Shown: piece by piece, positions 8,428 through 46,500 of the stretch
How positions within the stretch are numbered: position 1 is the first letter of the stretch
How the letters are laid out: every line of letters begins with the position of its first letter
The notes under the pieces: generated by a model
What the model was told of the DNA's origin: nothing
Seen by the model: only the letters and a program-made list of their open reading frames with translations
Database searches by the model: none
Translations under genes and position numbers: made by a program
Source: an uncultured Verrucomicrobiae bacterium
Lineage (GTDB): Bacteria > Verrucomicrobiota > Verrucomicrobiia > Limisphaerales > Palsa-1400
Direction of reading: 5' to 3'
Assembly: GCA_963702845.1 (NCBI GenBank)
Contig: OY969763.1
Span: 3,424,001-3,488,000, forward strand
DNA length: 64,000 nucleotides

Positions 8428-9636
8428 GTGTTTGACACCGCTGTGAAACAGATTCACAAACCATTCCGCCTCGCCCTTCTCCTATTGGCGCTGCTGATAC
8501 CTGCCATCGCAGCGCTTGCCGCAGACAACGCCACCTTAATTTCCGTTTCCATCACCAACGGCACGCCCGTCATGCCGCGCACCGTCTTCACCCAGAGTTG
8601 GACCTTCCAAAACACCGGCACCACAACGTGGTCATCCGGCTCCAGCTATACACTGAACCTCATCGGCACTGACTCCCTGGGGGCCATTCCGCTCCATACC
8701 AATACCACAAAGACCTTCACCACAGTCGCGCGAATCTCCAGCAACACATCCATCGCACCCGGTGCGCAAGGCACATTCAAAATGATGTTCATAGCGCCCG
8801 AGAAACCGGGCCTCGTCTCCAACGTATTTCAATTAAACAACTCCAGCGGCGTCTTCTTCGGCCCGCTAGTCGCCGTGCAAATCAACGTCCAAAACGCTGG
8901 CTCAACCAACCAATACGATCGCGCCAGGGCCATTTCATACGCCAACAACTACGCAGCTTACATTGCCAGCGACGGATATTTTTGGACCAACGGCAACGTG
9001 CCCGCAGACTGGTCCTACTTTTACTACGGTGCCGGCACGCCCGTCCCCAGCAACCTCACCGGTGACGACTGCGCTCATTTCGTTTCCTGTTGCATTGGCC
9101 GCCAGCCGGCGCAATGGGGCGGCGGCCTCTACATTCCCAGCCGAACCTCACCGACCTACGGCGAACCCGGTGCCGGTCGTCTCGTCAACACCGTCCTCAT
9201 CGGCGGCTGTTACGCCGAAGAAGTCTCCTCCCTTTCTGAAATGGAACCCGGCGACGTCATTGGCTGGAACTGGGAAGGCGACCACAACATTGCTAATCTC
9301 GACCACGTCACCATGTACACGGGCAACGGCCACGTCGCCTCACACGCCGCCTCAGTCCTCAACACCTCTGCAGCCACCTGGTATGGTTCAAGCGCCGTCC
9401 ACCATTACATCCACATCTTCGACGCCCCATCCCTTGACTGCGCCGTCGCCAACAACAAAATGATCTTCAGTTGGACCACCAACTGGGCCGGCTACAACCT
9501 TTATTCCTCAACCAACGTGGCTGCTGCAGCTGCTTGGAAAAAAATCACGACAACACCCAGCAAAGTTGGCAACACCTACAAACTCACCAACACCATCGCC
9601 TCCCCCAACCTCTTCTACCGCCTCTCAATGCCTTAA
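8428..9636 (+). CDS. Secreted amidase (Amidase_6/NlpC-P60-like Cys-His) with N-terminal NBR1-like Ig domain and C-terminal FYRL tail
   Basis: AAGGAG precedes GTG at 8428; signal peptide; FTQSWTFQNTGTTTW (NBR1/FW-type Ig); YDRARAISYA..DDCAHFVSCCI..PGDVIGW..DHVTMY; ends NLFYRLSMP. Confidence 0.75.
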   Translation: MFDTAVKQIHKPFRLALLLLALLIPAIAALAADNATLISVSITNGTPVMPRTVFTQSWTFQNTGTTTWSSGSSYTLNLIGTDSLGAIPLHTNTTKTFTTVARISSNTSIAPGAQGTFKMMFIAPEKPGLVSNVFQLNNSSGVFFGPLVAVQINVQNAGSTNQYDRARAISYANNYAAYIASDGYFWTNGNVPADWSYFYYGAGTPVPSNLTGDDCAHFVSCCIGRQPAQWGGGLYIPSRTSPTYGEPGAGRLVNTVLIGGCYAEEVSSLSEMEPGDVIGWNWEGDHNIANLDHVTMYTGNGHVASHAASVLNTSAATWYGSSAVHHYIHIFDAPSLDCAVANNKMIFSWTTNWAGYNLYSSTNVAAAAAWKKITTTPSKVGNTYKLTNTIASPNLFYRLSMP

Positions 9637-9683
9637 TTCGCCCGAGCCTTTGGAACCTCAAAGTTGCTCGCATGGCTATGTCC

Positions 9684-9718
9684 TATCTGATATCTGCTAT
9701 CTGCCATTTGCTATCGCC
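9684..9718 (+). repeat. Degenerate heptamer tandem repeat
   Basis: TATCTGA TATCTGC TATCTGC CATTTGC TATCGCC; a similar ATTTGCC-type array is at 10114..10141. Confidence 0.7.
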
Positions 9719-9962
9719 GCCGCCCGCGTCCGTTTCCGTGCTGCCGATCGCGATCAAACGCAATTCCCAAACAACTGCTGGGACACTTCCCCAAACTCCG
9801 CTAGGAGTGCCATATCTATAGATCAACCGCCAAAAAAAATTATCCATTGTTTCCGCGGGCCGACACCCGTCCGCAAGCGAGCGCTAGTAATCCAGGGTAA
9901 GGCGCTCGCTGCTGTAGCGACGGCAAAGTTTCGCAGACACCCACCCCCACCGGGGGGTTAGA

Positions 9963-10044
9963 GCCGTCAGGCCGTCAGGAATGTTGGTGGTCAATGGGTT
10001 GCGGGCCAATTCAGCCGTCAGGCTGACGGCAGGCACCCGTCAGG
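9963..10044. repeat. CCGTCAGG direct/inverted repeat cluster
   Basis: CCGTCAGG at 9964, 9972, 10015 and 10037; palindrome GCCGTCAG-G-CTGACGGC at 10014..10030. Confidence 0.75.
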
Positions 10045-10057
10045 TTTAATTTCAATC

Positions 10058-10094
10058 AAAAAGCCCGGAGCACAATCGCTGCTTCCGGGCTCTT
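10058..10094 (-). terminator. Probable intrinsic terminator
   Basis: AAAAAGCCCGGAGCA..TGCTTCCGGGCT hairpin with a T-run on the minus strand, between the convergent amidase and S8 genes. Confidence 0.55.
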
Positions 10095-10171
10095 GAATTT
10101 TGTGAGGCCAGCGATTTGCCCTTCGCCATCCGCCATTTGCCATATTACTCAACCGTTGCCGCCTGTGACCA

Positions 10172-10200
10172 GGTAGGGCTCGTCGCTCCGCGAGCGCCGC
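10172..10200 (+). repeat. GTAG-type REP-like element, copy 1
   Basis: GGTAGGGCTCGTCGCTCCGCGAGCGCCGC; 27 of 29 bases identical to 61673..61701. Confidence 0.75.
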
Positions 10201-10415
10201 TAACGGCGGCACCTGGAGCGGGATTATTTTATACTGTGTAGCCGACCACGACGACCCAACCCTGTGGCACCTCGCGATCAGAGACGGAGAAAGCAACGCT
10301 CACGACGTCTTTACAAAGAGAAAATAAACTCCCGTCGTTTGCAATTTGTATTTGCCTGTCGTCTCCGCATCGCATAGGGCAACCTACCTAGAGCCAGCGA
10401 GTTAGCCCTTGTAGG

Positions 10416-12839
10416 TTATGCTCTGACGCGCGATTGAAGTTGGACTTGAGCGAGCACTCGGGCCTGAACTTGACTATACAAACGCTGACACCGTCCGGTG
10501 GTATCTTCTAACCGGACCGCAAGCCCTAATGGAACCGACGTCGTGTCTTTACACCATGATGCGGCAGACAGTGAAACGGCCAAAATGTAGTCATTCGCGC
10601 TGAACTCTGATTCGTGATCGTGCCACTCAAAAACATCACGCTGCAGAGTGCCGACAGAGCGCCTCTGAATTTTCAGCTTTCCGGGAAGATGATCAACTTG
10701 CACATCAGACGTTAAGTTTTCCTCATCATCGTTGCGTTGCATCATTGAAACAATCTGGTCAGTAGGCTTATCCCCTCGAAACAATCGGAATTTCAATCGT
10801 GCACCGAGATACTCAGCGACACCCCACTGTTGCACCGGTGGAGCACTCGCGACGGCTATGGTTATCCTTTTCAACCCATTTTCTGAATCGCGGATTTCTA
10901 CAGGCACAGGAATCCGAAACAATCCCACTCTATCAACTAAGATTGCACCGTCGTAGAACAGGATGACAGAATGCGGTGCACAATCGGTCGCGCGACTCGC
11001 AATCGGCAACCCATACCCAACGCATTTTAGCAAATCTTCCGCTCTCGCAAAAACAGGATCTGTCGGCGCTTCGGCTGACAACGCCAAAAACGCACGAAGA
11101 AGGGGTGCTGAGGGTTGAGCGATTAGTGGCCGCAAATCCCGAACGATAGATGCTAATTGGTTTGCGACCCGCGGGCCAGCGTAGCTGTTACCGTTCCCAT
11201 GTTGAAGTGGAGGAGTTAACTTGTTACTCGCCATTACAACGTTGGTTCCAGCATTGGAGGCGACCCGCTGTTGAGGATCGCGAACAAGATTTCCGCCTCG
11301 TTCTACAAAGTCTGGTTTGACTGCTTGGCCGAACCCAGGACCTGTCCGCGTAAATGGTGAGGGCTGGTTTTCTCGTGCAATTGGGACCGATGGCGCAACG
11401 ATCACCCTTTCAGAGGGCGCAAGCGACCCGACGGTAACAGCTAACGCCGCTTGTCCAGGATCAAGGATTTTCGCGAGCGCCTGGCGCAAGTACAATGGAT
11501 ATTGCTGATTAGCAGAGAGGTCTTCGACATCAGCGGGAGAGAGGTTGCCTGTAATTGCGACGAACACGACATCGAAGTCTCGCGAAAGCTGGTCCACCGT
11601 CCGCGCCACCCATGAATTGCGGGGCACAAGGTTGCCTCCGGCTTGATTCCAAATGTGCCCGACAATGCTAAACGAAAGCACGAAGATGCGGACCCCATTC
11701 GGACGGAAGTGAGCAACTACATCCCTGAGGATTCTCGATAGGAGTCGGGCTTCCCGTAAACGCTGGACGCCATCGTCATCAATGTACGGGGTGTCCAGCT
11801 CTCCTGCATCGTTGGTTATGCGGGCGGATGCGACGAATGCAGATGCCGAGTTGGCAGACCCGTGGCTCATGTCAATTTGATAGTACGCCGCTAACGACGC
11901 TACGCCTGACCCGTGTCCCACGCCATCTGCATCAGGAGCAAAACCATCAATAAAACTGTGTGATATTTGCGTGCGTAGTACAGGTTGCAGAAATGGGTTA
12001 GCACCGGCTACACCGGTATCGATGACGCAAATCGTCTCGGCATCATCGGGCGGCGTGCTCAGCGTGGTGTTCGAGACCGAAAAGCTCTGGTAAACCGTCT
12101 CAAACGTTTCGAAATGTGGTCGCTTCTCAAACAAAACGATTTGACGCCACCACCGCGGATCCTCAACAAGCGCCTTCAACTTCTCACCTGTGCTGGATAA
12201 GACAGCTCTTGCACCAACACCGGCAAAGTCCGTTTCGTAAATTCGGCCGTCGATTGCGCCGAGAAACTCACGCAGTTCCGTTAAGCTACGCTCCACCTCG
12301 CGACGACGTGTCTCTAATCGCGTTGCAAAGCTTGCCACCTCTATTTCGTAAACAACGAATTCTTGGTGAATAAGTGATTCATAGTCGGCTGCAAATTCCG
12401 GCGACAACCGAGCTTTAGGATCAGCAACTGCAATCGATGAAATGCGGGTGACAAACTCAACTCCCGTTGGCCGTTCAGAAACAGTGTCAGCCGCGATTTT
12501 GCCAAGACGTTCTTCCAGCGTCTCTAAACTTTTTTTCTTCGGTACGACCAAAGTCTCGGTCGAAGTCGAAGGGCCCATCGGCATAAGACCGGTTCCACGA
12601 AGGTCCAATTTTGTCAGCGGTCTATCATGCGTCAGTTTAAGAAATGCCGCTCGCCTCTGCTCAGGTGTAAGTTGACGCACAACTGTCGCAATTTCTCGAA
12701 GTTCCGTTCGAAGGGTGTGACATTTTGTGGTCCTTTCCGAAACGGCAACGGGTGGCAACCTAGGAAATGGTAACCTTTCGCGCCTACGGGCGCTTATATG
12801 AGGTTGAGAGATTTGAATTGGCGGGTATTCGCTATTCAT
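10416..12839 (-). CDS. S8 (subtilisin-like) serine peptidase, IetS/Y4bN-like
   Basis: Triad motifs VIDTG, GHGSGVAS and GNSYAGP; SPFTRTGPG..KPDFVERGGN; VGYGLP. No signal peptide; 4-bp overlap with the upstream ATPase. Confidence 0.9.
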   Translation of the reverse strand: MNSEYPPIQISQPHISARRRERLPFPRLPPVAVSERTTKCHTLRTELREIATVVRQLTPEQRRAAFLKLTHDRPLTKLDLRGTGLMPMGPSTSTETLVVPKKKSLETLEERLGKIAADTVSERPTGVEFVTRISSIAVADPKARLSPEFAADYESLIHQEFVVYEIEVASFATRLETRRREVERSLTELREFLGAIDGRIYETDFAGVGARAVLSSTGEKLKALVEDPRWWRQIVLFEKRPHFETFETVYQSFSVSNTTLSTPPDDAETICVIDTGVAGANPFLQPVLRTQISHSFIDGFAPDADGVGHGSGVASLAAYYQIDMSHGSANSASAFVASARITNDAGELDTPYIDDDGVQRLREARLLSRILRDVVAHFRPNGVRIFVLSFSIVGHIWNQAGGNLVPRNSWVARTVDQLSRDFDVVFVAITGNLSPADVEDLSANQQYPLYLRQALAKILDPGQAALAVTVGSLAPSERVIVAPSVPIARENQPSPFTRTGPGFGQAVKPDFVERGGNLVRDPQQRVASNAGTNVVMASNKLTPPLQHGNGNSYAGPRVANQLASIVRDLRPLIAQPSAPLLRAFLALSAEAPTDPVFARAEDLLKCVGYGLPIASRATDCAPHSVILFYDGAILVDRVGLFRIPVPVEIRDSENGLKRITIAVASAPPVQQWGVAEYLGARLKFRLFRGDKPTDQIVSMMQRNDDEENLTSDVQVDHLPGKLKIQRRSVGTLQRDVFEWHDHESEFSANDYILAVSLSAASWCKDTTSVPLGLAVRLEDTTGRCQRLYSQVQARVLAQVQLQSRVRA

Positions 12840-13855
12840 GAAGCTCGTGAGCCCGAACGAGACGCAGCATGCAGTTTTTTACGCCATGCGTGACACTCCT
12901 TCACAATTTCATCCACGGGAGTAATAGAAGTGCGCTCAAGGAGTTTGGTTTTGGCAACCTCTCTTACGGCGCGATCAATTTCTGCATATGAATAGCTTTT
13001 TAACTTCCGGGCAGCGCCGACCAAATCTCCTTGAACACGGAGGCCGCCGGTTAAAAACCGAAGTTGTGCCGCGCGTTCCGGTTCGCCCGGAAGGGGGAAT
13101 TCGATAACGTCGTCAAATCGCCGCCAAATCGCTGGGTCAAATGTCTGCGAATGGTTGCTGGCCAAAATCACCAGGCTATGTTTCGGTGAGAAATAGTCCA
13201 AAGCCTGTAACAAGGAGTTCACAACACGCCGCAGCTCTCCAACGTCATTACGATCTCCTCGTGCCTTCGCAACTGCATCTGCTTCATCGATCAGGAGCAC
13301 CATCGGTCTACCTTCTGCGACGGCAAATACTTTCTGCAAATTCGAAGCTGTTTCGCCAACATAGCTGGTTATTAGACTACTTAACCGAACCACGCCGCAT
13401 GGAATGCCGAGATCACTCGCTATTAGACGCGCAGCTGCGGACTTCCCACATCCAGGAGGACCCCAGAACAACAACCTTCGTTTCGGCTGCAGTCCACCCT
13501 GCTCAAGCTGGTGAACCGCTCGATATTCTAAAGCTATGCGATCTAGCGAGCTCTGAGTATCGCGACTGAAAAACAGTTGCTCACGACGAAGTCCTTCGGG
13601 TACGAATGTGACCAACGAATCAGCCTGCCGCGTTAAAACCTGAACTGTTGCGGGAACCGAGTTGCCGTTTCGTTTTATTTGAGTCAATGCCTCTCGTAGA
13701 GCTTTTGCTTCGCTCGGGCGGTTGCTCATACTCAACTCACGGACGATGGTTTCGGCATTTCGAGAGAACCCAGTCTCATCGTGCATCGCATGCGCGAGCA
13801 CGAGCTTGCGGATGCAATCAAAAATCTCAGGAATCGGCATCGTCGGTTTCAGCAT
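12836..13855 (-). CDS. AAA+ ATPase, IetA-like partner of the S8 peptidase
   Basis: Walker A GPPGCGKS, SYVGETASNL, Walker B LLIDEAD, DVGELRRVVNSLLQ and DPAIWRRFD. Confidence 0.92.
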   Translation of the reverse strand: MLKPTMPIPEIFDCIRKLVLAHAMHDETGFSRNAETIVRELSMSNRPSEAKALREALTQIKRNGNSVPATVQVLTRQADSLVTFVPEGLRREQLFFSRDTQSSLDRIALEYRAVHQLEQGGLQPKRRLLFWGPPGCGKSAAARLIASDLGIPCGVVRLSSLITSYVGETASNLQKVFAVAEGRPMVLLIDEADAVAKARGDRNDVGELRRVVNSLLQALDYFSPKHSLVILASNHSQTFDPAIWRRFDDVIEFPLPGEPERAAQLRFLTGGLRVQGDLVGAARKLKSYSYAEIDRAVREVAKTKLLERTSITPVDEIVKECHAWRKKLHAASRSGSRAS

Positions 13856-15494: not shown

Positions 15495-15596
15495 TCGAAA
15501 CGAATCCTCTTTCCAAAAACTTGGTGTCTTGGTGCCCTGGTGGTTAAAACGTTTCTATTTGAATTTTCTGCGGCACGGGGTTTACTTCCCGCTTCG

Positions 15597-19424: not shown

Positions 19425-19439
19425 CGCGGGCTGTCTATC

Positions 19440-22166: not shown

Positions 22167-22786
22167 TGGTTACACCCGTTTAACAGGGAGGGAAAATCGT
22201 AAAAATTTAACGGCAGACGGACCGGTCGTAACCCTTCCGACTTTCTCTTTTACCAGAACTCAGGAACGAAAGGGGGTCTGTTCGTGGTGCCGACATATTT
22301 CATCAAACATCGGCGTCCTTTCCAGCGCCCGCTGTATCTCCGTCGCTCTATGGCTTCTCCGATCCGATCTCCCAACCCCAAAGCGGGTTGAGTCACGCCG
22401 CCCAGCGGTTGCGAGGCACGACCTACCCTGGGTAAAAACCAAACAAACGAAGTTTCACTTCCTGTCCCGCTCGGCATGGATTGCGCAAGAGTTGGCGATC
22501 AATCAAAACGCACCGATATCATTTGTTCTATTGGCATCGCGCGAACAAATGGAATGGGCGCAGTTGTCGATACTGAGAGGCCACTAAGAACCCCGAGCCT
22601 TTAAACAACTATGTCAACACCGTTGACCGACCGCTTCCTCGCCAAAGATTTGCAATCTCTGGACTCCGCTCACTTTCAATGTGCTACAAAACTGCCCTCT
22701 TAACCATTGCGCCGTATCGTATTTTCACCTATCATTCCAACGGTCCTGGCTCTACTGGCAATGCAACAATCAAAGGCAATGGCAAT

Positions 22787-23110
22787 ATGATATCAAACGA
22801 ACGTCCGTCCGGTTACTCCCCTTCATTCAACGATCGCTCCTTTAATTCTGATCGCCCCTCCTATCAATCAGCGCCACTCCGACCACGCGTCGACGAGGAC
22901 ACTCTCAAAACTGAAACAATTCAGATCGAGCGCAAAACTTTCATCCTCACTCTGAAAGAGAACCCTCGCGGTCGTTTCCTCCGCATTACCGAGGACGTCA
23001 ACGGCCGTCGCGATAACGTCATTGTTCCATCTACCGGCCTGGAAGACTTCGCGAGGATTGTTACTGAAATGGCGCAGACAGCCGGCCAGACACCATCACA
23101 GCCCGCGTAA
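22787..23110 (+). CDS. PUR-domain (Pur-alpha/DUF3276-like) ssDNA/RNA-binding protein
   Basis: LKTETIQIERKTFILTLKENPRGRFLRITE..RRDNVIVPSTGLEDF matches the PUR repeat. Confidence 0.85.
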   Translation: MISNERPSGYSPSFNDRSFNSDRPSYQSAPLRPRVDEDTLKTETIQIERKTFILTLKENPRGRFLRITEDVNGRRDNVIVPSTGLEDFARIVTEMAQTAGQTPSQPA

Positions 23111-26663: not shown

Positions 26664-27230
26664 TTAATGAGCGCCGAGTTTGAGGACGGTGGTTTTACCC
26701 TGGTAGTCCAGAGTAACAGTCGTCGACTCGATTTTTGTGACGGTGGCGCCATTAATTTCTCCGCCGACCTGCACGGAACCTTCGTTGATCAATGCAGTCG
26801 GATTCTTCGTGTAAAGAATCCCTTTGAGACGAAACGTCGGGACAGCAGGAGCCGTCACCGGTGCAGGGGTAGCTGTGACAGTCGTATTAGAAAGTGTGAG
26901 TGCAGCCGGAACGGGAACATCGGCCTGCGGTGCTACGGCTTTGGCTGGTTCGGTCGCGGCGATTTTTGCAACGATTGGTTGAGCCTCGGGCACTACTTTC
27001 GCAGGTTGAACTGCGACAGGCTCAGGCGCTGCGGTTCTGGATTTGGCATAAACAAAACCAACAACGCCAATCGCACCGACAAACAAAGCGACCGAAACCC
27101 AGAAAAGATGGTTCGACCGTTCCTGGTAGACTGGTTGCATCGCGCGCGTTTCGAAATCGGCTTGTGCCGCTGACGGTTTACCGCGCTCGGCCTCGCTCAC
27201 TTTTTTGAGGGCGTCGTTGATCAGGCTCAT
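26664..27230 (-). CDS. ExeB/GspB-like membrane protein
   Basis: MSLINDALKK start, one TM helix, Pro/Ala linker, C-terminal LKGILY..ALIN..VGGEING.TVTKIE domain; coupled to an ExeA-like gene. Confidence 0.75.
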   Translation of the reverse strand: MSLINDALKKVSEAERGKPSAAQADFETRAMQPVYQERSNHLFWVSVALFVGAIGVVGFVYAKSRTAAPEPVAVQPAKVVPEAQPIVAKIAATEPAKAVAPQADVPVPAALTLSNTTVTATPAPVTAPAVPTFRLKGILYTKNPTALINEGSVQVGGEINGATVTKIESTTVTLDYQGKTTVLKLGAH

Positions 27231-28042
27231 GCGCCGAGATCTCCTTCGAGTTCACGCAGCGCCCGGCCGACCATGCGGTAGTTGATGGTTTGACTTTGTT
27301 GCACGTAACCAGCCAAAAGGCATTTATCGCAAAGTGCGTTGATGAGTCGCGGAATGCCGTGGCTGTAACGATAGATGCGCCAAAGCGCGGGCCTGGTGAA
27401 GTAAGGCGCGCCGTTTCCGCCGGAAATTTGCAGGCGGTGTTGAATGTAGTGGCCAACTTCAGAACGACGCAGCGGATTCAAGTGATAACGAACAGTGATG
27501 CGCTGGCGCAGTTGGCGAAGTCGATGGTCGTTGAGACGTTCGCGCAATTCGGTTTGGCCCATCAGAACGATCTGGAACAGCTTGCGCTCGTCAGTCTCGA
27601 GGTTCGAGAGCAGGCGAACTTGCTCAAGCAGTTCGAGCGTGAGGTTCTGGGCTTCGTCGATAATGAGAACCGACTCCCTGCCCTGCTCGACCTGCTGGAG
27701 CAGAAATTTATTGAGCATCGCGAGAATTTCCAACCGATCCATCCGTTTTGGGACGAGGTTGAATTCCATGGCGATGGCTTTGATCAATTGGTCGGCGTCG
27801 AGAACCGGATTGAGAATAAGCGCGGTCGAGTAGTTAGCGCCGAGTTGGTCGAGGAGAGCGCGGCAAAGCGTCGTTTTACCAGCGCCAACTTCGCCGGTGA
27901 GCTGAACGAAACCCTTTCGTTCGCGAATGCCGTAAAGCAAATGATTGAACGCTTCGCGATGTCTCGGGCTGAAGAACAGGAACCGCGGATTCGGCGTTAT
28001 GCTGAAGGGCGGTTCATTCAGTCCGTAATATTGCAGATACAT
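27227..28042 (-). CDS. ExeA/GspA-family AAA ATPase (ATPase domain only)
   Basis: MYLQYYGLNEPPFSITPNPRF, TGEVGAGKT, IIDEAQNL, LEQVRLLSNLET, QLRQRI and GIPRLINALCD. Confidence 0.92.
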   Translation of the reverse strand: MYLQYYGLNEPPFSITPNPRFLFFSPRHREAFNHLLYGIRERKGFVQLTGEVGAGKTTLCRALLDQLGANYSTALILNPVLDADQLIKAIAMEFNLVPKRMDRLEILAMLNKFLLQQVEQGRESVLIIDEAQNLTLELLEQVRLLSNLETDERKLFQIVLMGQTELRERLNDHRLRQLRQRITVRYHLNPLRRSEVGHYIQHRLQISGGNGAPYFTRPALWRIYRYSHGIPRLINALCDKCLLAGYVQQSQTINYRMVGRALRELEGDLGA

Positions 28043-32209: not shown

Positions 32210-32211
32210 TC

Positions 32212-35200
32212 TTAGTTCCCGATTACGCGATAGTAGCGTGAGGGCGCAACCAACGGTGCAAGTCGGCGATTCTGGCCGAAATCCGAGAAACTCGTAATCG
32301 GCGATGTGGCGTTCGTATTTCCTACTAATTGCCATTGATCACTGAATGCATCGCGAGACTCGATGCGCAACGACGTGCCAACGGGCGCGCTGATTTGAAC
32401 ATGCGTTGCTCCCAGTTCGTTGGGCGGAAATCAGTTCGATTGCGTTAAACAGGGAGGGCACATCCAATAAACTCACATCAAAGGAGACATTGTCCCACGT
32501 TGTTGCCCATGCGTTGTTCAACTGAACAGCAATAGTGTTCGTGCCAACCGTCAGCAGATTTTGAAACGGCGTCAGGTCGAAATACTTTGTTTCGTTACCA
32601 TCGGAACTGACGGCGTTAATTCCGGATGTGATAATCTCCAAACCGTTTATCCACAATCGAAGTGGATACGTGGTGCCGGCAAAGTCATCCGTGCAATTGG
32701 CCTCCAGGAGGAGCTCTTCGAAATCAATGTCGCATAATGTGAATGTCGTTCGAAAGTAGTAAGACGGCTTGAACGCGGGAAGAGGTGTCGCAATGTTTGT
32801 CGGCCCACTTCCAGCGCCGAATTTTGCGGCACCGATTGGCCAGACGGTATCGGCAAAATTCGTAGTAAACCATGAGGCTGCGGGAGTGCTGTTGAAGTAC
32901 CGCCACGGCGATCGGAACGGAAGCAGGACGTTCCAATGTGAATCGCTCAGCGGTGGCAGAGCACGAAAGAAAATATTATCGAGATAGATTGAGCCACTCG
33001 CGGGTGATGCACTTTGGAATCGATGGCGCAGTTCCACATTCGGGAAACCGACCGGCATCGTGAACACTCGATTCAAGTAAGTCCAAGGCGTTGCTGTTGG
33101 GCCAATGGCAAGCGGAGGCGTGAAGTAGTTCGGAAAAGGAAAAGTTGGACGCGCATTGTGGTCGTCGCCTGTCAATGATGAGGTCCATTCGAACCAATTC
33201 GTTGTCGCGGTTGTTAGACCGCCACTTTGCATGTATCCACCGAAACTGTAGAGCGTGCCGGCGCTGACGGGAAGGTAAGAACGCGGGGTGCCGTAGACGA
33301 CGTACTGATTCAGATCCGTCAGTCGTCGTTTGGTTCCGCAGTTCCACCTGCATGGATTGATGGCCCTGGAAAGCGTTGCTCGACCCAATAACATTTGTCC
33401 ATGGAAGATTCCCCGTATCCCATTTGTCCCAATGACTGTTGTCGTTCTCTTCGAAACCAGCATTTGCAATAAGGTTGCCATTGAGCAACGAAAGAACTGC
33501 GAACGGCGCGGAACGAACCTCTCTGCCGTTCACAATGGCTGCGAGTTCATAGATATATTGCCATCCGACATCGAAACCAGAATCAGTGTAATTGGTAGCG
33601 CTGTTTGGGAGAGTTGCGACCAGGTTGAAAACGCCAGTTTGGATCGGATGCGCGATAAAGCGATAAGCAGAAACAATGTTCGTCCCCTGCTCTGCCCATT
33701 CGAAATAGGCTTTTTCGTAACCGCCGATTTTTTTGGTCACGATCGGCGTATTTGGCGGAAATAGTGAGCGGACCAAGATTGCCGTCGCGTCGCGCGTTGC
33801 CACGATGTGTCGCCCATGAAACATTTGTCGCGTTATTGGCGCCGAAATTTTGGACGTAAACCTGACCGGCGAGAGAACGATAGACGACATCAAGCGAACC
33901 GTCGCCATTCACGTCCGCAAGAAACGGGATATGTTTGAGACCACCGGGGACATTCAGCTGTTTGTTTCAACGTCCCATCCAACGCAAAAACATAGAGAGC
34001 GCCACTGGATGGGTTGTGCGCCGGATCGTAGGTGCCGATAACGAGTTCCTGCTGACCATCACCATCAACGTCGCCGACAACAGGTGGAGTTGGAATGAAC
34101 GGGAAAAAATTCTTCGGCCAGCCCGGTCGATCGACCAATTCAACACCGTTCCAGGTGCGGAAATTAATTTCGTATGAGTGCGTGAAACTGACAACGTCGA
34201 TGCGATTGTCGTGATCAGGATTAATCGGGAAAGCGCAGGCGTTGTTAAACCAACCATTGTTGTTCGTGATCGTGACCGCCTGTTTCCATTTACGCCACAG
34301 GAGCGCGCCATCATCGTCGAGAAATGATTCATGGGGTTGCCACAAACAATTGAATTGGGTCGTGACTGAAAGCACTTCGTCCAGGCCATCGCCATCAATG
34401 TCACAGGGATAAATATCAATGCCTTGTTGATAGAAACCAGAAGTCATGCGCAAATTCTTGCCAAACATTTTGTGCAGTTGACCATTGCCATAGAAACCAA
34501 AGGGCTTGGATTTATCAAAGCAAACGATGCTGTCGCTGTCGTTGAGCACATAGGTTTCGAGTCCCCCTGCGGTTTGCGACCGACCGAGCCCGAGACCTGA
34601 TTCGACGAGCTGGTGGAGATGGTAAACGTAATCTTTTGCACCGGTGAGCGCGTTAAAAAACACAACACCGCCGGACCACGACTCTCCAACAGTGCCCCAT
34701 TCGCCACCGCCAAAGATGTCGTTGATAAAGGGGTTGTAATCCTGTTGACCACCATCGGGTCAGGATCGATCTTCCACGCAGTCGCAATTTGTTTTACGCC
34801 AGTGCCACCGAAGTCGGCAACATCGGCGACGAAACTTGTGAGGAGAACACCGCGTTCGCCGGTAATGTCGGCATGAAATTGATTATCTGTCGTCAGATAG
34901 AATCCATTGGTGACAACCTGATAGCCGCTTTGCGGAATGTAATTTTGATAGGTTACGGCGTTTGACCACATGACCGAGCCGTTGCCGCGCAGTGCGATGA
35001 GTCCGTTGCCGCGATAAAAATAATCTCCATTTTGCCATCGCCATCGAGATCATAGAGCGTCGGCGAAGTATTCATCTCATCGGAACCGCTGCTATAGGGA
35101 AACCCGGCAGCGCGTGCCGTTCCATTTAAAGGCATCGAGGAACCATTGACCGTTATTGTCTCGATATGGAACAACAATCTCCAAGGCGGAATCCGAATCC

Positions 35201-35409
35201 AAATTTCCTACAGCAAGTGTGCCCATGTGCCAACCGCCTGTGCCTGCCTGAAAACTGGACAGCGTTGTCGCGGTAGCCGTGGAGTAAGAGAAAAGCAGAC
35301 ATGCAGAAGCCCATATTGCGACAGAGAATAAGTTTCTGAAGCAATTGAACTCCTTAATCTGACAACGGCAGAACCGTGTCGCGCCCACAATACCTTTGGC
35401 GCGTTGCAT
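32212..35409 (-). CDS. Secreted FG-GAP-repeat protein with carbohydrate-binding-like domains and RYYRV tail (multiple frameshifts; start uncertain)
   Basis: Joined ORFs 35092..35472, 34953..35177, 34444..34971, 33890..34663, 33583..33912, 32976..33908 and 32339..33481 carry DLDGDGKMEI, DIDGDGLDEV, DVDGDGQQEL, NLIANAGFE and SPWRY..FGAG. The hand-translated end is ..DQWQLV..SRYYRVIGN-stop at 32212. Confidence 0.7.
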
Positions 35410-35504
35410 GCCCCCATAGGTAGCTCGAAACGTGCCACGACTGCTATTCAGGCGGTCGCGATTACGAAACAAAGACAGTTGCCGAGTCGCCGAAAAAGGA
35501 GAAT

Positions 35505-36341: not shown

Positions 36342-36345
36342 GTTG

Positions 36346-39300
36346 TTAGTGAGGCATGCGGAATGCGCGATAGTAACGGGTCGATGAACCCGTTGCCGCG
36401 CTATCGGTGATGGTAAATGTCCCGCCGACTGGCGTGTTGGTGCTGATCGTAATCCAGTTCGTCAGATCAGTTGAGAATTGCGACGATGTATGGTTCGCCG
36501 GTTTGACCATTAAGTGTTAATCTGGAAGCCGGTTCCATGCTGGTATGTGCCAGTCAACTGGGCGCTGGCAGCTTGAGTGACCGTGTTGACAAACGATGCG
36601 GTGTTGTCGATTCGTATACAGATCAGTGCATCGGCTGAAACAGTTGCGCTGAATTAGTCATGGCTCCAGAGGCTAACAGCCTGAACGCGAATGAATGCCG
36701 ACCGGACTGGAACCTGAAGCAAGCGATGGGAGACGGCAGTTAAGAAGATTGCCGCTGACGTCTGTGGTGCCGGATGCGATGGATGCAGAGACCAACGACA
36801 CGCCGGCCGGCAACGTGTCAGAAATCACAACATTAGTTGCGGCCGCAGGACCGGCATTATCAACTGTGACAACGTAGTCGACTAAATTGCCCGTGAGCAG
36901 GCTGGCAGGCGTGCCGGCCATGGTCAATGAAAGCGCTGCAGCCGGATTGACAGTATTTGCCACAGTCAATGTCAGCGACCAACCACCAATGCTACCTGAA
37001 TTACCCGCAGCGTCGTCGAGAACGTAGAGCGACCACGTTCCGTTCGCAGGGCTGCCGTTGAGCGCGCTCATCGTTGTGCTGGACGTGCCTGAGAATGCCG
37101 GGAAATGAAGTTGGCGAAAATGCGGAAGGTTTATAGCTGCCAGAAGTAATCTGCGCGGTGGCCGACAGATAGCTTGCTGCAGCGTCGTCCACTGTAATAT
37201 CGACATTGGCAATGCTATGCGCGCCGCCGCAATGTGCCATTGCGATGACACTTTGGCCGGTTGGGCTGACGAGCAGAACGTTGACGTCGTTCGGGAACGT
37301 ATGGGTTACCTTGCTCAGCTTGAGCACAGCTTTGCTGACAACACCCGGAACGTTCGAGATTGTGATCGTTGATGGATAAGGCGAAGCCGGTCCGGCTGAA
37401 GGAATTGTGACGCCCACGCCATTGGTGTATGAACTGGTTGTGGGAACTACGAACGAAAACGTTGGCGCGGGAAATTCATAGACGCCGTCTGCTAATGCCA
37501 GCTGAAGCACATTTGTGCTGCCCGCCGGCTGTGTTCCGATGAACGAATAGGTTGCAATAACGCTTGCTCCTGGAGCGATGCTGCCGAACTGCTGGAAGCC
37601 GATAATCGGAACGACGCCGCCGTTGTTTTGGACCTGGCTTTGTAGGTTCGTGGTCGCAGCGGTCCCAATATTCTTCAACGTGATCTGGATCGTGACAGTT
37701 TCGTTCGGGTCAACAGCACCGTTTTGAACGCCGTTTTCTAACACCAGTTTGACACCCGTTGGAACGATCACTGGCACCGGTTGCAGAACCGTTGAAGGGA
37801 TGGCAACTGAATTGTCTGCGTTATTTGCATCCGATGAACCGCTGACAACAGCTATAGTGTTGGTGACAAGCCCAGCAATGCTCGGTGCTACTGTAATCGT
37901 TGCGGTTGCCGCCGAATGAGGCGCCATGTTGCCAAACGCAATCGTCACGAGATTGCCACTTACACCGGCTGTGCCCTGGCTCGCAGTCGAATTGACGTAA
38001 GTGAAACCGGCGGGCAGCGGGTCGGTCAACGTCGCATTGAGAGCAACGTTCGGACCGCGATTCGTTACACCGATCGTGTAAACGAGATTATTGCCGATGG
38101 TAATTGGGTTGACTGAAGCCGTAGCGGACAGACCAAGATCAACAATTGGCAGAGCGACATTCACGGAAGGCGTCGCTGTATTGTTGCCAAAGTTAGCATC
38201 GAGTTCATTGGCACCGACACTTACCGAGTCCGTTTGTGTTCCGACAGCAGTTGCCTTTGCGGTAACGGTGAAGATCACATTACTGCCCAACGCAAGTTGT
38301 GGGAGCGTGAACACGATCGTTTGGCCGCTGGTTGTGTAAGTTGATTGTGGCGGGCCGGAAACGGAGACGAGCGACAACCCTGCGGAAAGCACGTTTGTCA
38401 TCTTCACGCCTGTCGCGGCAGCCGGGCCATCGTTCTTGACCCCGAGTTGGAACGTTACATTGTCACCAACCAAAGCTGATGTCGGCGTTGCCGGATTTAA
38501 TCCAGCGGTGACTGCCAGTTCAACCAGAGGATTGACCGGCTGGGCCGTCGTAATTGCAATGCTCCAACCACCTGCGATACTGCCTGAATCGCCCGTTGAA
38601 TCATCAGCTACATACAATGACCATGAGCCGTTTGGATTGGAGCCTCCGAAAGCAGCAATATTTGCGTCATAAGGTCCGACAGGCGGCGCGGGCGCGTTGG
38701 TTGGGAACACATAAGCAGGCGTATAGGACGCCGGCGCGTAACGCGTGGAAATCAACTGATTGTCGCTCGGGATTATCGTAGAAGCCGCAGAATCAAAGAT
38801 AGGGCTGATATTCGACACTGGAATGTCGCCACCGGCGTGGGCCATCAGAATCGATTTGCGTCCTGTAGGATGCACAACAAGCGTGCCGATATCTTGCGGA
38901 AACGTATGTGACAGCCCCGCCAACGTCACAGCGACTCGCGACACAAAGCCAGTGATACCTGACACCTGGATCGTGGACGGATATATCGAAGCGGCCTTCG
39001 GTCCGGAAGCCGTGGCATCAAGAATGGTAATTGCTGCGGAATTCGAAAACACCGTCGTGGTCGGAAGCGCAAACGTATAATTGATCGTCCCAACATTGGT
39101 ACCGTTATTTTGAACTTGAAGAGTGGCTGTGACGCTGCCGCCGTTTGTCCCAGTCGCAGCAAACGTAAATGGAGCCGAACCAATGCCATTGACTCCAATG
39201 GCACCATAGGACTGCTGGCCGCTTGGGGAATTCACGCCATTTCCAGACAACAAGGTCGCCGTAACCGATGATGCAGTGATGTTACCCTGGTTCTGCAAGC

Positions 39301-42300
39301 GCAGTTGGAGCGTTACAGTTTCGCCGATGTCGATAGTGCCGTTTGCAGGCGGGATACTTTCAGCAGTGAGCGTCGCTCCTGCGCCAGCAATCTTGATAAA
39401 GGGCTGCTGCACTGGTGTGTGCAAGATAAAGTTATTATTGGCAGTGTTCGGATCATTCTGAACCGAAGACACACTTGCCGCCGACAGAATGGTCGTCGGC
39501 AGTGCCGGAGCTTTCGCATAAACAATCGCAGTAACGACCGCGCCGGGCTGCATTGTCCCGATGTTTGCGGTCACGGCGCCGTTCTGATTCGAGATTGTTC
39601 CCGTCGTGATCGTGTTACTGAGAATGGTCGCACCACCTTGCACCGACTGAGACATTTGCACCGCCTGGGCAAGGCTCGGACCGTGGTTCACAACCGTGAT
39701 GGTGTAGGCGAAGTTGCTATTCAGAAGAACGCTGGCCGGATTCGCAACCATGGTGATTTCGAGGTCAGCAGCGGGATTCACGGTCGTCGAAACGGAGGCA
39801 TGGTTGTTTCCGGTGACAGGATCGAAAATAAAGCTGTCGGACGCTACTTGTGCAGAGGCATTGAAGATCCCCACGGCTGTTGGGCTGACGACAATCGTCA
39901 CTGTCGCTGTGGAACCTGCGGAGATATTGCCGAGGAGCGTTAAAATACCTGCCGAAGAATTTGCAAACATTCCCTGGCTCGTGGTCGAAGAAATAAATAC
40001 CACGTTCGCCGGCAGGAGGTTCGTTAGAACGACCCCTGTCGCAGTGAACGGCCCATTGTTGGTGACAACCATGGTGTAGGTAAGCGTTCCACCGGCGAGG
40101 ACGGGGTTCGGAGCTCCAATCATTGTCACCGCAATATCAGCAGTTGGCTTTTCGACGCGTGTTGTAGCGGTTGCCGAGTTGTTCGAATGATCCCCGTCGA
40201 CTGAAGGCGAACCAACATTCGCGGTGCTGGAGATGATCCCGTTGGTCAGCGGCGTAACAGTGACGGTCACGGTCGCAGTACCGTAAACAGATAAGCTGCC
40301 GATGTTAGCAGTGACGGTGCTCAACGACTGATTCACGGCTCCTTGCGTCGTTGTTGCGGAAACGAATTGAACGCTCGGGGGTAGCGATTGGTTCAAGACC
40401 ACCGCCTTCGCCGTCGCCGGGCCGAGGTTCGAGACAACCATCGTGTAAGTGAGGTTGCTGGTGACGAGCACTGGATCCGGGTTGTCGGTTATTGTGAGCG
40501 ACAGGTCTGAACCAGGACATTCGCCGCCGCCGTCGGTGCATACATATGGGGCGATCGACAACGACCAACAATTGAGCGTGCCAACGTCAATAAATACCTG
40601 ATCCACGATGTGCAGATACCAAGTGCCATTGACGTTGGTGCCGGTTTTAAGATTAAACGTGGCGAGCGCTTGTTGCGGTTGGAAAGAACCGACATATGGC
40701 GGCAAACCGGCAGTTATTGAATTCGTCGCATTGTCGTCGAATGTCGTGCGATTTGAATCTGGCGTGCAGTTGATGCCGTAGTTGTCACCATTAAAGCCGT
40801 TATTTTGCGACAGGAGAACTTTGGTACCGTCGGGCGCGATGAGTTCCATCATCAAATCGGAATCGAAGGTATGGGAGATAAACATTGACGCGGTCACGTG
40901 GGCAATCCCACCCAGAATATTTGTCACGGTTATCGGCGACATGATGCCGGTCTGATTAGCGTCAGGGATTACGACGGCGGTGTTGTTCTGGAATAAAATG
41001 GGAGCCCCATTTGTGCCGGTGAGAATTGTGATAGCGTTCGTCCGAATGTCCTGGTCCGAAGTGATGATGAGGTCAAACTGGAGCGGCGTGCCGCAGACCA
41101 GTTCAGGAGTCGTGCTGATCCCGAACGGCGTCAGACAAACAGCCGCATTTGTACCGGGAATGACGGGCCAGGTTGAAAAAGGTTGAGTGACAAACACACC
41201 GACGGTCTTTGAAATCAGTTTTGCGGAAATGCTTCCGACGATGAGCGTGCCCCGGTTTGTAAGGGTAATATTCATCTGGTTGCATTCGTCGGGATCGACG
41301 ATTCCGTTATTGTTGCCGCCGAGGAGCGAGTTGGTGAAATAGCCAAGGCCAGGAATATTGTATGATTCGATAACGCCGACAGTCGTCGAATTGATCGGAA
41401 CGAACGCTCCCGCACCCATACCCCGCTTGGCGAATCCGCGCCAGATTTCATCGGCATTTGCTGCGTTGTTGTCAATACGGTCAGCTGCGAGGATTGCATC
41501 GCGAGATTCAAGAAAGGTCGGATTAGCCGGACAGAGCTTCATCGCGTCAGTGGTGAGCTGCAGCATTTTCTGGTTGCCAATGTCGCCATATTTGGTGATG
41601 AGGTTTGCGCGCACTTCCCAAAGAGCACTGCACCAAACTTCGCCTGCATGATGCACTTCGTCCGCTTCGTTCGGATCAAACGGTGAGTAGACGGGGCTGT
41701 ACGGAATGCCGGTGTGCGGACTGACTTGGGTTGGGTCGATGTCCTTTAGGGTAAACGGATTCTTGCTCATGTCCGTTGTATAAGGATAGTGACGAACACC
41801 AAAGTAGTAGTTCGCGGTCATGCCAAAGAACTGATAGGTATCGTAACCGCCGAGAGCGTAATTGCCATTAACATCATCGCCTGGCTGGCTGAGAAGGGAT
41901 AATGCGTAGAAGTCCGACCATCCTTCTCCCATTTCGGACGGTTGTAGTTCGGTGATCGAAACACCGCCGCCAACAAGGCGCGTGCTTACGCCATGCGTAC
42001 TCTCGTGCAGGTAAACTTCCTGATCCACAGCGCCGTCACGAATTGGCGTTGGGAAATCGAAAACAAATTCAACAATATGACCAGATTGTCCGTCCGGTGC
42101 CGATAGGAAGAATGAGTTATCAGCGATTCCAACATCGGCGCCAAATTGCGTGTGCGCAATAATCGGATCCCCACCCAAGCCACCACGATTAAAATTATTT
42201 TGCTGATAGTTACCAGCAGCTTCGGTAAAGCCATAACCGTAGAGCGTGTCGTGATACCAATTTTGCCAATAAAACATATGAACCACTGAAGCATCTGAAT

Positions 42301-43558
42301 ACGTGCTCGGATCACTATTCAAATTGATCGGTATGTCGAACACACGATTTGGATTGCCAGTCGGACGCGCGCGGTCGGGCTGGAAATCGCCGTCGCGATC
42401 GAGAAACACATCCACGTTATTTCCGGTCGTCGAGTTGTTATTATCGTCGATCCAGCCGTTTGGCGATGCGTTGGTGTTCAACGCGGCAATTGTCACGAGA
42501 GTGCGAGCAACGGTTGTAGGTTGGAAGCTGGATGGAGTAGACAAGCCGGGAGAGAACGGAGATGGGCTATCGCTCGTCCACACGCGGTAGCTGGCATCGC
42601 TGATATGGCAGGTCAGATTCTGACGCAGCAGGATTTCACCGGTCTGCGCATCAACAAGTGTCTGGAAACGTTCCACAGGCGTACCGACTGTGACGAGTAC
42701 TTGCCAGCATAAGCGAACAGTGTTGGCATCCATCGGCAACCAAGTGAGATGAATGTAAGAATCGCCATAAATCTTACCGGGCGCTTTCAGGTTCTGCGCC
42801 TGTTCAGAACCATTAGCATCGGACACCGTTTGGATGTCATCAGCGTTTAGAGAATTTCCAACATCTTGCGCAGCCAAAACCAACGCCTGCCGTGCGGAAA
42901 TGGGCAAATTGGCTTTTAGCGCCGCGCGGGTCGCGGCGTCCTGATGTGCAGCCGCAGCTGGATCAGGCAGAAAATGCGTCGAAATGTTAACGAGTTCACT
43001 GTTCTTAGTCACGTGACCCATGAGCACTGCCTCGAATACCGAAATATCATCCAGTTGCTGTTCCCAGATCATGGTATGCAGGCCATTGTGCGCTGTCGTG
43101 TAATCGCGTTTGACCTTTGCACCATTTAATACTTCGCCGCCATGGCCGAAGAGAGCTGAGTGCTCGTTGAGGAATGATTTAATAATCTGCTGATGCGTTG
43201 CATTTTGCGCGTGGCTTTTGGCCAGAGCACCGCCCTGCCCGTTTGGTCCAGTGAGGAATCCATCGGCTGATTGCACCCAGTGCGGCGTATTCAGAAGGCG
43301 GTCGACACTGACTTTTGCGCCCGGCACAAGTTGTTCGAGCTTGTGTAAACCATTTTTCTTTTGCGCGGGTAACTCCGGTGTAAGCATCGCATGTCGTTTA
43401 TCAACATTCGGCGTGGGCGCATGGTCGCGATTGAACGCTTGTTGCGCACTGGCGCACTGCACAAGCGGCGTCAGCAAGAGCGCCGCGATGATGCAAGATG
43501 CCTGCCGCAAAACCCGGGCGGCGCAATTGATTTGTGAGGTTGTGGGTCGGTTTTTCAT
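36346..43558 (-). CDS. Giant secreted M36 (fungalysin-type) metallopeptidase with proprotein-convertase P-like and DUF11 domains, about 2400 aa (frameshifts after about 37100)
   Basis: Signal peptide and propeptide; YGFTEAAGNYQ, HESTHG, GEGWSDF, EVHHAGEVW and WRGFAKRGMG; P-like SHTFDSDL..GTWYL; DUF11 DLSLT..LTYT..N.GP..A. Continues via ORF 36673..37251 to ..STDLTNW..TRYYRAFRMPH-stop at 36346. Confidence 0.88.
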
Positions 43559-43568
43559 GGACGATGAA

Positions 43569-46500
43569 CTATTGCGCTCGCAGACGGAAGAATCGCGCGG
43601 AATTGGATGAGGACACCTGGAATTGGTATTGCCCGTTCACCAGCACTGCCGAGGAATCGGTCACTGGCGTCCACACACCAGAAGGTGCGAGGCTGGTTGT
43701 TTGCTCAATGACAAAGTTGCTTCCGGCCCACCCAGGCCACGTCAACACCAAACCGTTCTGGGCGGCAAACGCCCCGAGCGCTGGCCCGTCAATTTCAACT
43801 TTCGTAGAAGCGGTGTTGTTGCCCTTGAGGGGATCAAACGTTGCGCTGGCAACACGAACCGTTACCAGATTTGTCGTCCCGCCTAAGCCAACCGCCGATG
43901 CAGTAATCGTCACTGTCGGCGAGGTATTCGGATCCGAGTTCACTGGCAAGTCGCCGAGCGCAACCACGACGAGCCCGGTTGAGTTCGTAGTAATTACAGC
44001 AGAGCCGAGACTGCTCGAAACGCTTTGCAGCGCCAATCCAGCGGGCAATTGGTTGGTAAGCATGACGGCGGCTGCAGTCGAGAACCCGTTGTTGATTGCC
44101 CTCATCGTGATGGTGACATTGGTGTTGATCAGCACCGGGTTCGGACTAACCGAGATGGCAGCAGCCATGTCGGCTTGCGCTGTATCGACTTCAGTCAAAA
44201 CGCTTGCGATGTTGTTCGCCAGGTTCGGGTCAAACTGGTCTGCCACAACTGTGATCGTATTGGTGAATGTTCCAGTCACATCAGCGCGCACGAAGATGTC
44301 GAAGCTTTGCGTGCCATCCTTGAGCAGGTAGGCCAGCGGACAGCTCAACGTGTTGCTGCTGATGTTGAAAGTGCAGTTGCAAGTGTTGGATAGATACGTC
44401 ATACCGGCAGGCAGCGCATCAGTGAACACAAGATTGGTAGCGCCGGCAGGTCCGTAGTTACTGAACGTAATGTGGTAGTTAACAACGTTACTGACAGTCG
44501 CGGGAACAAGTAATTGTGTCATGCTGACTGCGAGATCGGCACTCTGGTCCAGGCGCGCGCCTGTCGTTAAGTTAAGGATCCAGCCGTTGTTAATCGTGCC
44601 GCTGTCGTGGTAAGTCGAGTCGACGATATACAGCGACCACAGGCCATTCGGGTTGATTCCGTTGAAAGCACCCATCGACACCTGGTAAGGTCCAGGCGGA
44701 GCGTCTGGGAACGACGGATAGAAAAACGGCTCGCTCGCGGCCGTGCCGAGCGTTGGCTTGTTAGTGCCAGTCGTAATTGGCGCCTCATTCGGCAATGCTG
44801 GATATGAATCATCGAACGTCAGGCGAACGTTGCTAATGCTGAAAGGCCCACCATCCGCTGCCATGAGCAGTGTGTTCGGAGCAGACCCGCTCGAATTATT
44901 TGGAGCTGCCAACAATGCATCAATGTCGTCAGGATACGTGTGGCTCACGCCGGCCAACGTTGCCGTGACTTTCGCAACAGTTCCGACCACGCCAGAGACG
45001 TTCATCTGTGCCGGATATGGCGTCGCTTTAGTCGGTGCGTTTGAACTGTCATTAATCACGATCGTGGCCGAATTCGTGAAGGAATAGGTGTGACCACCAA
45101 TCGGGAATGCGAACAGGCCCGTTCCCAACGGTCGACGAATAGCGCCGACAACATCCTCGAGCACGAAGGTCGCAGTAATCGTTTGTCCGTTTGTCGCATT
45201 CGCTTTGAACGAAAAGCGCTGAGACACAGACGGACCATTCTCGATGAGCGTCCCGTACGATCCCGAGTTACCCACACCATTATAAGGTGTCGCGGCAGTC
45301 GCGTTCGTGACGCCGTTGGTATTCAGAAGCGTCGCGATTAGGTTCGTTGTGTTACCACCACCCGTATTGCGGAAGGCGAAGTAGAGCGTGACGGTTTCGC
45401 TCGGATCAATCAAACCGTTGACCGGACCGCTCTCGCTCAAGAGCGCAACACCAGCGGGAACAACCAGACTGCCGTTATCTTCAACAATCGTCAGCGTTGC
45501 CGTTGTTGGCGTAATCAGCACTGCGCCCGTTGAAGGATTGGACAGCGTTAACACCACCGTTTTATCGCCGGTAATGATGTTGTTATCTTGAACGACAACA
45601 TCGAACGTCTTAATCGTCTCACCGGGCAGGAATAAAAGCGTGCCGTTGGTGGCCGCGTAGTTAATCGGGGCGGTTGCCGACCCATCTTTGGTTGCGAAAT
45701 CTACGCTCGCCGATCCGTTGGTAACACTGGTGCGTTGCACAGTGATCGTAACGGCATGCCCGTTCTTCAATACACGATAATTTGCGCTGGAGAACCGCAG
45801 TCCGATATCGTTGTCCAGCACAGTCAGCACAGCATTGGAGCTGGTAATTTTAGCTCCGGTGGAAGGATTGAACAGGTTCAAGAGCACCGTTTGGTCACCG
45901 TCAACAGCCGTGTTATCAATGATCGGGACAGTAAACGTCGCGGTGGCCTGGCCATTGACGAATGTCAACAAACCGTTCGTGCCAACATATCGTAATCCGG
46001 CGCGGGCGGTGCCGTCAGCCGTCGAGAAACCGACAGTAACAGTCCCGGTATTAATGGAACTTCGGTTGACTGTGATCACTGCGTTCGTCCCGCCTTCATT
46101 GACGACGTAGGTCGGGCTCGAGTAGCTCAGGCCAGAGTGTGTATTGATAATCGTCACCACAGCCGAATTAGGCAAACCAAGGAAGGTGTTTGGCGCCGGG
46201 TTCCTCAAGATAATAGAAAACTGTTCATCTGCGGTGATCTGACCGTCGTCCAGAATCGGGATGAAGATCAACTTGGTCACTTCACCGGGTCCGAACGTCA
46301 ACGTTCCCGACGTTGTTGTGTAATCCTCACCGGCCACCGCGACACCGTTAGTGCTCAGCGCGTTGGTGGTTGAATAGTCGACGGTCACAGTTCCGTTCGT
46401 TCCACTGTTGCGAACAACAGTGACAAACACAGAACCGGCATCCTGACGCACGAAGTACGCCGGATTCGCGAACGTGAAGTTCACATGATCATCGTTGATC

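Follow-up and report, generated by a model that had tools for sequence, protein, structure and literature searches.

A candidate C-terminal sorting module of Verrucomicrobiota and its predicted TIGR02597-like partner

Known terminal modules and the tail family

The type A C-terminal domain (CTD; TIGR04183/PF18962) of type IX secretion systems (T9SS) in Bacteroidota is a beta-sandwich of ~75 amino acids (aa) which closes dozens to hundreds of unrelated proteins carrying signal peptides; it is cleaved, and its cargo is glycolipid-anchored. In the cellulosome, many enzymes share a terminal module, the calcium-binding, helical dockerin, which clips onto a common surface scaffold by way of cohesin. 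A third arrangement is found in chaperone-usher pili, where the pilin domain of FimH as well as FimG and FimA are described as immunoglobulin (Ig)-like sandwiches which lack the C-terminal strand and are completed by the N-terminal extension of a partner (PMC10673952). Here, we analyze a C-terminal tail shared by four proteins encoded in a stretch of 64,000 nucleotides (contig OY969763.1, positions 3,424,001 to 3,488,000; the window) from an uncultured Verrucomicrobiae bacterium of the order Limisphaerales. The tail is predicted to be a fibronectin-III (FN3) sandwich without its last strand, which a protein related to the TIGR02597 family may supply.

The source genome is a single contig of 6.03 Mb in which frameshifts are numerous. 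On the plus strand of the window, a likely secreted N_BRCA1_IG and Amidase_6-like protein (cargo 1, 8326..9636) bears a tail ending at the stop (copy 1, 9400..9633). The other three cargo genes lie on the minus strand and encode an FG-GAP protein spread over several frames in the assembly (cargo 2, 32212..35472; copy 2, 32215..32430), an M36 metallopeptidase with DUF11 and P-domains and a frameshift near its 3′ end (cargo 3, 36346..43558; copy 3, 36349..36570), and a giant Calx-beta/delta-60 repeat/DUF11 protein in four pieces (cargo 4, 43569..53555; copy 4, 43572..43805). The original prediction, according to which these unrelated secreted proteins share a tail, located all four correctly, and each quoted sequence ends 0–4 residues before the stop. 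Their similarity is also significant: when a profile is trained on 111 further terminal copies from the same genome, with the window's four excluded, exactly these four are picked out in the window (E 2.7e-8, 5.8e-5, 1.7e-10 and 1.9e-9 for copies 1 to 4; next best E 34). The predicted length of 55–65 aa had to be revised to ~75 aa, and of the signal peptides claimed for all four proteins a crude heuristic recovers three; that of the amidase, which the heuristic missed because there is no ATG, was seen by eye only. Frameshifts in the assembly affect the FG-GAP, M36 and Calx-beta genes, whose tails are therefore out of frame with their own N-termini; in copy 3, the last 56 codons share a single frame (36349–36516) and the 5′ part lies in other frames. 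Continuity was checked against orthologues for the M36 and Calx-beta genes: an intact M36 orthologue (L074; 49.5% identity, ~1130 aa) has the tail at its C-terminus, and Calx orthologues of ~2900 aa bridge the pieces of the window gene. With four tails per 64 kb against a genome mean of 1.3, the window is mildly enriched (P 0.04).

Genome-wide, a profile of the four tails yields 26 matches at iE<0.01, 24 of them terminal. Iterated to convergence, it yields 145 matches at the same threshold, 120 of which lie within 15 aa of the stop; a few of the 145 are true FN3 domains, and 13 are fused to TIGR02597. The best match of the iterated profile to reversed sequences has an E of 0.74. Terminal copies have a median identity of ~20% and keep a W in 91% of cases, as well as the F (72%), Y (77%) and R (82%) of an R-F-Y-R strand. 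By a crude rule, a signal peptide is called in 78 of 102 tail-bearing frames of at least 300 aa, as opposed to 563 of 1283 control frames, and 92 of the 102 have no later transmembrane helix. The terminal bias, the diversity of the cargo and the swaps with other terminal domains described below support the view that the tail is a common module for sorting or anchoring, placed at the C-terminus of exported proteins which are otherwise unrelated.

The T9SS CTD resembles the tail in size, in its position on many unrelated signal-peptide proteins and in its cargo, as M36 peptidases bear a CTD where the M36 peptidase of the window bears the tail (NF038113). The analogy drawn in the original prediction holds only at the level of this sorting logic. 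The CTD has no profile match to the tail, which, unlike the CTD, forms tandem arrays. Furthermore, the source genome (89.8% complete) contains no match to PorV, for which a control genome was positive, or to TIGR04183, for which no control genome gave a match either. The four tails match no NCBIfam family at E≤1, and none of 11 tail-sized queries rises above a Pfam cut-off or hits PF18962 or PF00041.

Across the phylum, the tail is present in 66 of 150 other genomes. In the control phylum (that of a metagenome-assembled genome, MAG, titled Cytophagales), 10 of 61 genomes have one or two weak matches, none of them terminal among the eight re-detected of 10 loci; a stricter threshold of at least three tail matches was therefore adopted. 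These weak matches in Bacteroidota are an FN3-like domain ~100 aa before the end which, unlike the tail, keeps its last strand, strand G; in the nearest relatives (L307, L308, L312, L314 and L316) it lies ~100–130 aa before the C-terminus. It is probably the domain preceding the T9SS CTD, and a common origin with the tail is possible. One genome with a RefSeq-style record, that of a Limisphaera sp. (L263/G184), has 62 tail matches together with the partner pair described below, and MAGs titled Binatia (L300/G182) and Bifidobacteriaceae (L301/G183), which are probably mislabelled Verrucomicrobiota, have at least 150 and 77, respectively, plus the partner. In a sequence library clustered at 50% identity, the tail matches at most 85,174 clusters, a ceiling which includes some true FN3 domains. 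The ESM Atlas neighbours of the tail, like those of the partner, are unnamed Verrucomicrobiota clusters. No description of the tail was found in a full-text literature search, which did not extend to subscription journals and supplements.

Predicted fold and strand completion

Modelled alone, tail copy 4 forms six strands (pLDDT 89.7) and gives weak FN3 and Ig matches among known structures (best Z 7.0, rmsd 3.0 over 71 residues; none with Z≥8). The R-F-Y-R strand is strand F, and the chain stops two to five residues later in 101 of 109 terminal copies, which leaves no room for strand G. As modelled, the tail would be an FN3 sandwich of ~75 residues missing this seventh strand. It shares with FN3 (PF00041) the strand order and the W/Y core, its best structural matches are FN3 domains and its profile weakly matches true FN3; it differs in the missing strand, in an array period of ≤80 aa and in falling below Pfam detection. 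Of 483 repeat periods in the 150 best library hits, 206 do not exceed 80 aa, corresponding to tandem strand-less arrays, and the last array copy is terminal in 121 of the 150 proteins; true FN3 arrays in the same set keep strand G. Tandem repetition would be easier to reconcile with a binding module than with a lone signal that is cleaved off. A glucanase/chitosanase (4zy9) contains a carbohydrate-binding module to which the tail is also weakly similar in sequence (E 5e-5). An origin from such a module was rejected, as this hint comes from sequence only and the module is not among the top fold matches.

The 13 non-terminal tail copies in the fusions are each followed by the same domain of ~315 aa, which is TIGR02597 (271 bits, cut-off 50), an NCBIfam paralog model with no function. 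Overall, the source genome has 14 TIGR02597 domains, 13 fused behind a tail and the 14th behind a complete FN3-like domain. Tail fusions also occur in L213, L252, L294 and L300, and the two parts are split neighbours in L173 and L238. In other genomes, TIGR02597 occurs as a free protein which begins with a signal peptide and continues with a short strand, in which a V-G is conserved, and the body. A short two-repeat form also exists, which the TIGR02597 model does not find and which has no Pfam match; either form is referred to as the partner. The source genome has exactly one free partner, of the short form (C1:353825-354469), with a signal peptide followed by the strand. A function or binding partner of TIGR02597 is not on record in the full-text literature searched, in which, within the limits given above, the identifier itself does not occur, and the partner body, examined within the fusion model rather than folded alone, has no clear fold match.

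A natural tail-TIGR02597 fusion was modelled with a pLDDT of 92 and a pTM of 0.90. FN3 chains align to this model over residues 1–87, that is, over the tail and the first TIGR02597 strand, with Z up to 9.0 and rmsd 2.3–2.8 for 77–86 aligned residues; 45 chains reach Z≥8. Full alignment to the FN3 A-B-E/C′-C-F-G sandwich (Z 8–9) is thus obtained only with the partner strand; middling Z values may reflect a common arrangement. In genome G060, a free TIGR02597 gene is immediately preceded by the gene for a giant tail protein, and this split pair, co-folded as two chains, scores 0.90, as opposed to 0.00 for the best of three controls. The mark applied to such scores is reached by 116 of 157 solved pairs, as opposed to 2 of 215 mismatched ones. 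The runs share ≥97% of contacts, the partner has a pLDDT of 89, and its residues 1–12 lie antiparallel on tail residues 70–74 and touch strand A. The N-terminal strand of the partner is hence predicted to pair antiparallel with the R-F-Y-R strand, between A and F. Four of the nine invariant or near-invariant partner residues fall within the predicted interface of 28 residues (P 0.004), and three of eight do so when the donor strand is left out (P 0.005). In the partner body, a conserved G-x-V and P patch is predicted to back the donor strand.

This predicted arrangement is reminiscent of chaperone-usher pili, in that a domain without its last strand would be filled antiparallel between A and F by the N-terminus of a partner. 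It differs from them in the FN3 type of the tail and in the sharing of one acceptor domain by ~120 unrelated cargos. Moreover, a chaperone-usher subunit is both donor and acceptor, whereas here the partner would be donor only and the cargos acceptor only, an arrangement which does not imply a polymer. Neither an usher nor a chaperone was identified; ushers were looked for among the window proteins, and no genome-wide usher search was made. With cohesin-dockerin pairs, the tail would have in common that many enzymes share a terminal module which attaches to a common surface scaffold; fold and chemistry are unrelated, strand completion being predicted here.

Tail and partner also co-occur over genomes. 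The partner profiles were built from genomes G001–G080, of which 35 have both, 6 the tail only, 5 the partner only and 34 neither (phi 0.73); the corresponding counts in the hold-out set G081–G150 are 19, 6, 4 and 41 (phi 0.68). With the threshold of at least three tail matches, all 150 genomes give 45, 9, 18 and 78 (phi 0.63); over the 150 genomes, phi spans 0.63–0.72. It could be argued that the tail stands by itself as a module of six strands derived from FN3, which binds a surface glycan or simply caps exported proteins, has no dedicated partner and became fused to TIGR02597 by domain shuffling. The confident stand-alone model, the weak likeness to the 4zy9 module, the tandem copies and nine tail-rich genomes without a detected partner are all in line with this explanation. 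It leaves unexplained, however, the fixed register of the fusions and the strand that completes the fold, as well as the contrast between co-fold and controls and the co-occurrence in the hold-out genomes, and we consider it very improbable.

The surroundings of the partner point to the PEP-CTERM/exosortase system (PF07589, PF09721). In the source genome, which has two exosortases, the free partner is followed by two true PEP-CTERM genes, each with PEP motif, transmembrane helix and basic tail. Of 46 partner loci examined, 42 have room downstream, and in 40 of these a PEP-CTERM gene comes next; both exceptions are tail fusions. The tails themselves, unlike PEP-CTERM sequences, have no PEP motif, transmembrane helix or basic cluster, and their cargo would use such an anchor indirectly. 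A periplasmic escort or folding chaperone could account for the same predictions, if strand completion is real and the cargo is handed to an export machine and then released. All binding-prediction and co-occurrence evidence fits such an escort, as does the presence of one free partner for ~120 cargos, and chaperone-usher pili are described as using a chaperone strand first (PMC10673952). We nevertheless think it unlikely: the partner domain is permanently fused at the end of 14 large proteins of the source genome, a gene with a membrane anchor adjoins the partner at the 40 loci mentioned, and none of the 46 partner loci has a secretin within 6 kb. In addition, the strand is predicted to come from the N-terminus and to run antiparallel to F, which corresponds to the stable state between subunits and not to the parallel chaperone state.

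Secretins, cassette and other window genes

The original prediction had nominated a secretin as the cognate exporter of the tail. The window contains an Amuc_1098-like tetratricopeptide-repeat secretin (61751..64000, minus strand, extending past the window), which closes an Amuc_1101/1100/1099/1098-like operon. The gene order is kept and each gene scores below its own cut-off, the secretin finding its best family in NF042912 (364 bits, cut-off 750). In Akkermansia, Amuc_1098 is described as an abundant outer-membrane secretin and proposed to serve type IV pili (PMC4960237). To compare secretin loci, 80 of ~145 listed loci from 30 genomes of the order were sampled along with 20 background stretches; types were reassigned by hand from bit scores, and 21 of the 80 loci, with less than ~130 bits to any secretin of the source genome, were set apart as other secretins. 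A tail gene lies on the same strand within 17 kb downstream in 16 of 20 loci of the Amuc_1098 type and 6 of 11 of the pilin-module type; for a further type the count is 3 of 10, for the canonical type II secretion system (T2SS; six with <7 kb downstream) 1 of 18, and for the other secretins 0 of 21. Six of the 20 background stretches contain a tail gene on either strand. In the source genome, three of four true secretin loci have a tail gene (post hoc P 0.01–0.025). A pilin-PilN-PilO-PilP-secretin module (L045:9297-20000; C1:205018-220651) is flanked by three tail genes, and secretin domains also lie inside open frames of 2900–4260 aa in five genomes of the order (L051, L052).

The signal at Amuc_1098-type loci arises from one inherited cassette, represented in the window by genes A (59280..60806), B (57882..59283, here in two pieces) and C (53589..57875), all on the minus strand. 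Judged by eye, orthologues of A end in a tail in 14 of 20 cases and those of C in 16 of 19; orthologues of B have no tail. In the window, A lacks the tail and C ends in a different domain of ~110 aa (53592..53921, minus strand), which has 21 copies in the genome, 20 of them terminal, and no Pfam match. This second terminal domain, a candidate second sorting signal as judged from sequence, closes the remaining 3 of 19 gene C orthologues, in addition to that of the source genome. M36 peptidases elsewhere have T9SS, MYXO-CTERM or GlyGly-CTERM ends according to model names. Such swaps on orthologous cargo suggest that the C-terminal position serves as a sorting slot. The cassette is unannotated and likely secreted, stands behind the Amuc_1098-type secretin in 19–20 of 20 genomes of the order and may provide order-specific pilus or surface accessories; a role as phylum-wide machinery was discarded, with 0 of 20 loci outside the order.

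Outside the order, none of 20 Amuc_1098-type loci (three with <10 kb) has the cassette or a profile-detected tail, and two of the 20 show a divergent tail by eye; 17 of these 20 genomes carry at least three tails. In other orders, a giant protein behind the Amuc_1098-type secretin (L162:3031-11628, L165:3083-16810, L169:2457-6548) ends in a divergent tail or another recurring C-terminal domain.

These loci bear on the proposal that a secretin or T2SS-like machine, either of the Amuc_1098 type or the pilin-PilN-O-P-secretin module, itself reads the tail as a signal for export, much as the CTD is read by the T9SS. The tail genes downstream of both secretin types and at three of the four source-genome loci agree with it, and GlyGly-CTERM and MYXO-CTERM cargo are described as requiring T2SS (10.1101/2023.06.07.544157). 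The downstream signal is, however, that of a single inherited cassette, whose genes A and C are tail-less in the source genome, and by profile it vanishes outside the order, in genomes most of which have at least three tails. Furthermore, phylogenetic profiling, which the original prediction had put forward, shows that secretin presence barely tracks the tail: of 80 phylum genomes, 68 have the Amuc_1098-type secretin, and its phi with the tail is 0.22 or 0.13. Direct reading by a secretin therefore appears quite improbable, and the Amuc_1098 secretin was rejected as universal tail receptor on the same figures. What stands of the nomination is the association within the order. As cognate receptor of the tail, the secretin is weakly supported, and the TIGR02597-like partner fits much better; as export route or gate for tailed cargo, it is plausible, although not a demonstrated reader of the tag.

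Further genes of the window comprise an ExeA-like ATPase (27227-28042, minus strand), which is close to the XrtA/PEP-CTERM-associated TIGR03015 (306 bits, cut-off 324) and stands without an exosortase, and a bacterial PurA (PUR-alpha-like) single-strand nucleic-acid-binding protein (22679-23110, plus strand). A porin-cytochrome-like cluster (806-7550, minus strand) with a predicted beta-barrel, multiheme cytochromes, an NHL protein and hemA possibly serves extracellular electron transfer. An AAA ATPase and an S8 peptidase form a pair (10416-13855, minus strand), an arrangement known from toxin-antitoxin or defence loci.

Proposed surface display and its meaning

The reading we favour, and hold to be reasonably probable, is that the tail docks its cargo on the TIGR02597-like partner, for display which PEP-CTERM proteins would anchor. 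Cargo would first be exported by Sec, whereupon the tail of each would dock on a partner, with the first ~12 partner residues taking the place of strand G. The PEP-CTERM neighbour, once processed by an exosortase, would in turn keep the partner at the envelope, and enzymes and adhesins might thus be displayed many-to-one. Folded cargo likely crosses the outer membrane via one of the genome's four secretin machines; such passage would explain the tail genes behind two secretin types in the order.

Several observations weigh against this docking model. The tail folds confidently on its own, and the data do not separate a permanent anchor from a transient escort. The co-folded pair comes from another genome and has a naturally fused counterpart, which the structure model may be reproducing and which may help the pair to pass; no solved complex of a like kind turned up in the structure comparison. 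Nine of the 54 genomes with at least three tail matches have no detected partner (the drafts G009, G018, G062, G072, G089, G092, G122, G128 and G143), and additional searches in three of them found none. Conversely, 18 of 63 partner-positive genomes have fewer than three tail matches, and P values overstate the association because the genomes are related rather than independent. Finally, the PEP-CTERM body is variable, with relatives in 12 of the 46 loci, and binding between partner and PEP-CTERM protein is suggested by gene order only.

Verrucomicrobiota are major polysaccharide degraders, and we know of no described route which keeps their many exported enzymes at the surface. The models raise the prospect of a display system of this phylum's own, with a strand-less FN3 tag on up to ~140 exported enzymes and adhesins per genome, one TIGR02597-like scaffold and an exosortase-processed PEP-CTERM holder, a view which could equally well prove right or wrong. 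If true, it would represent the first many-to-one protein sorting by donor-strand complementation and provide a natural plug-and-socket pair. TIGR02597 would also acquire a function, as would one class of PEP-CTERM proteins; what PEP-CTERM proteins are for is a long-open question, and the model proposes a role for some of them. The tail domain itself is uncatalogued in Pfam and NCBIfam despite its large cluster count. As the model names a receptor, the residues involved and a 12-residue peptide, it is testable with two small recombinant proteins.

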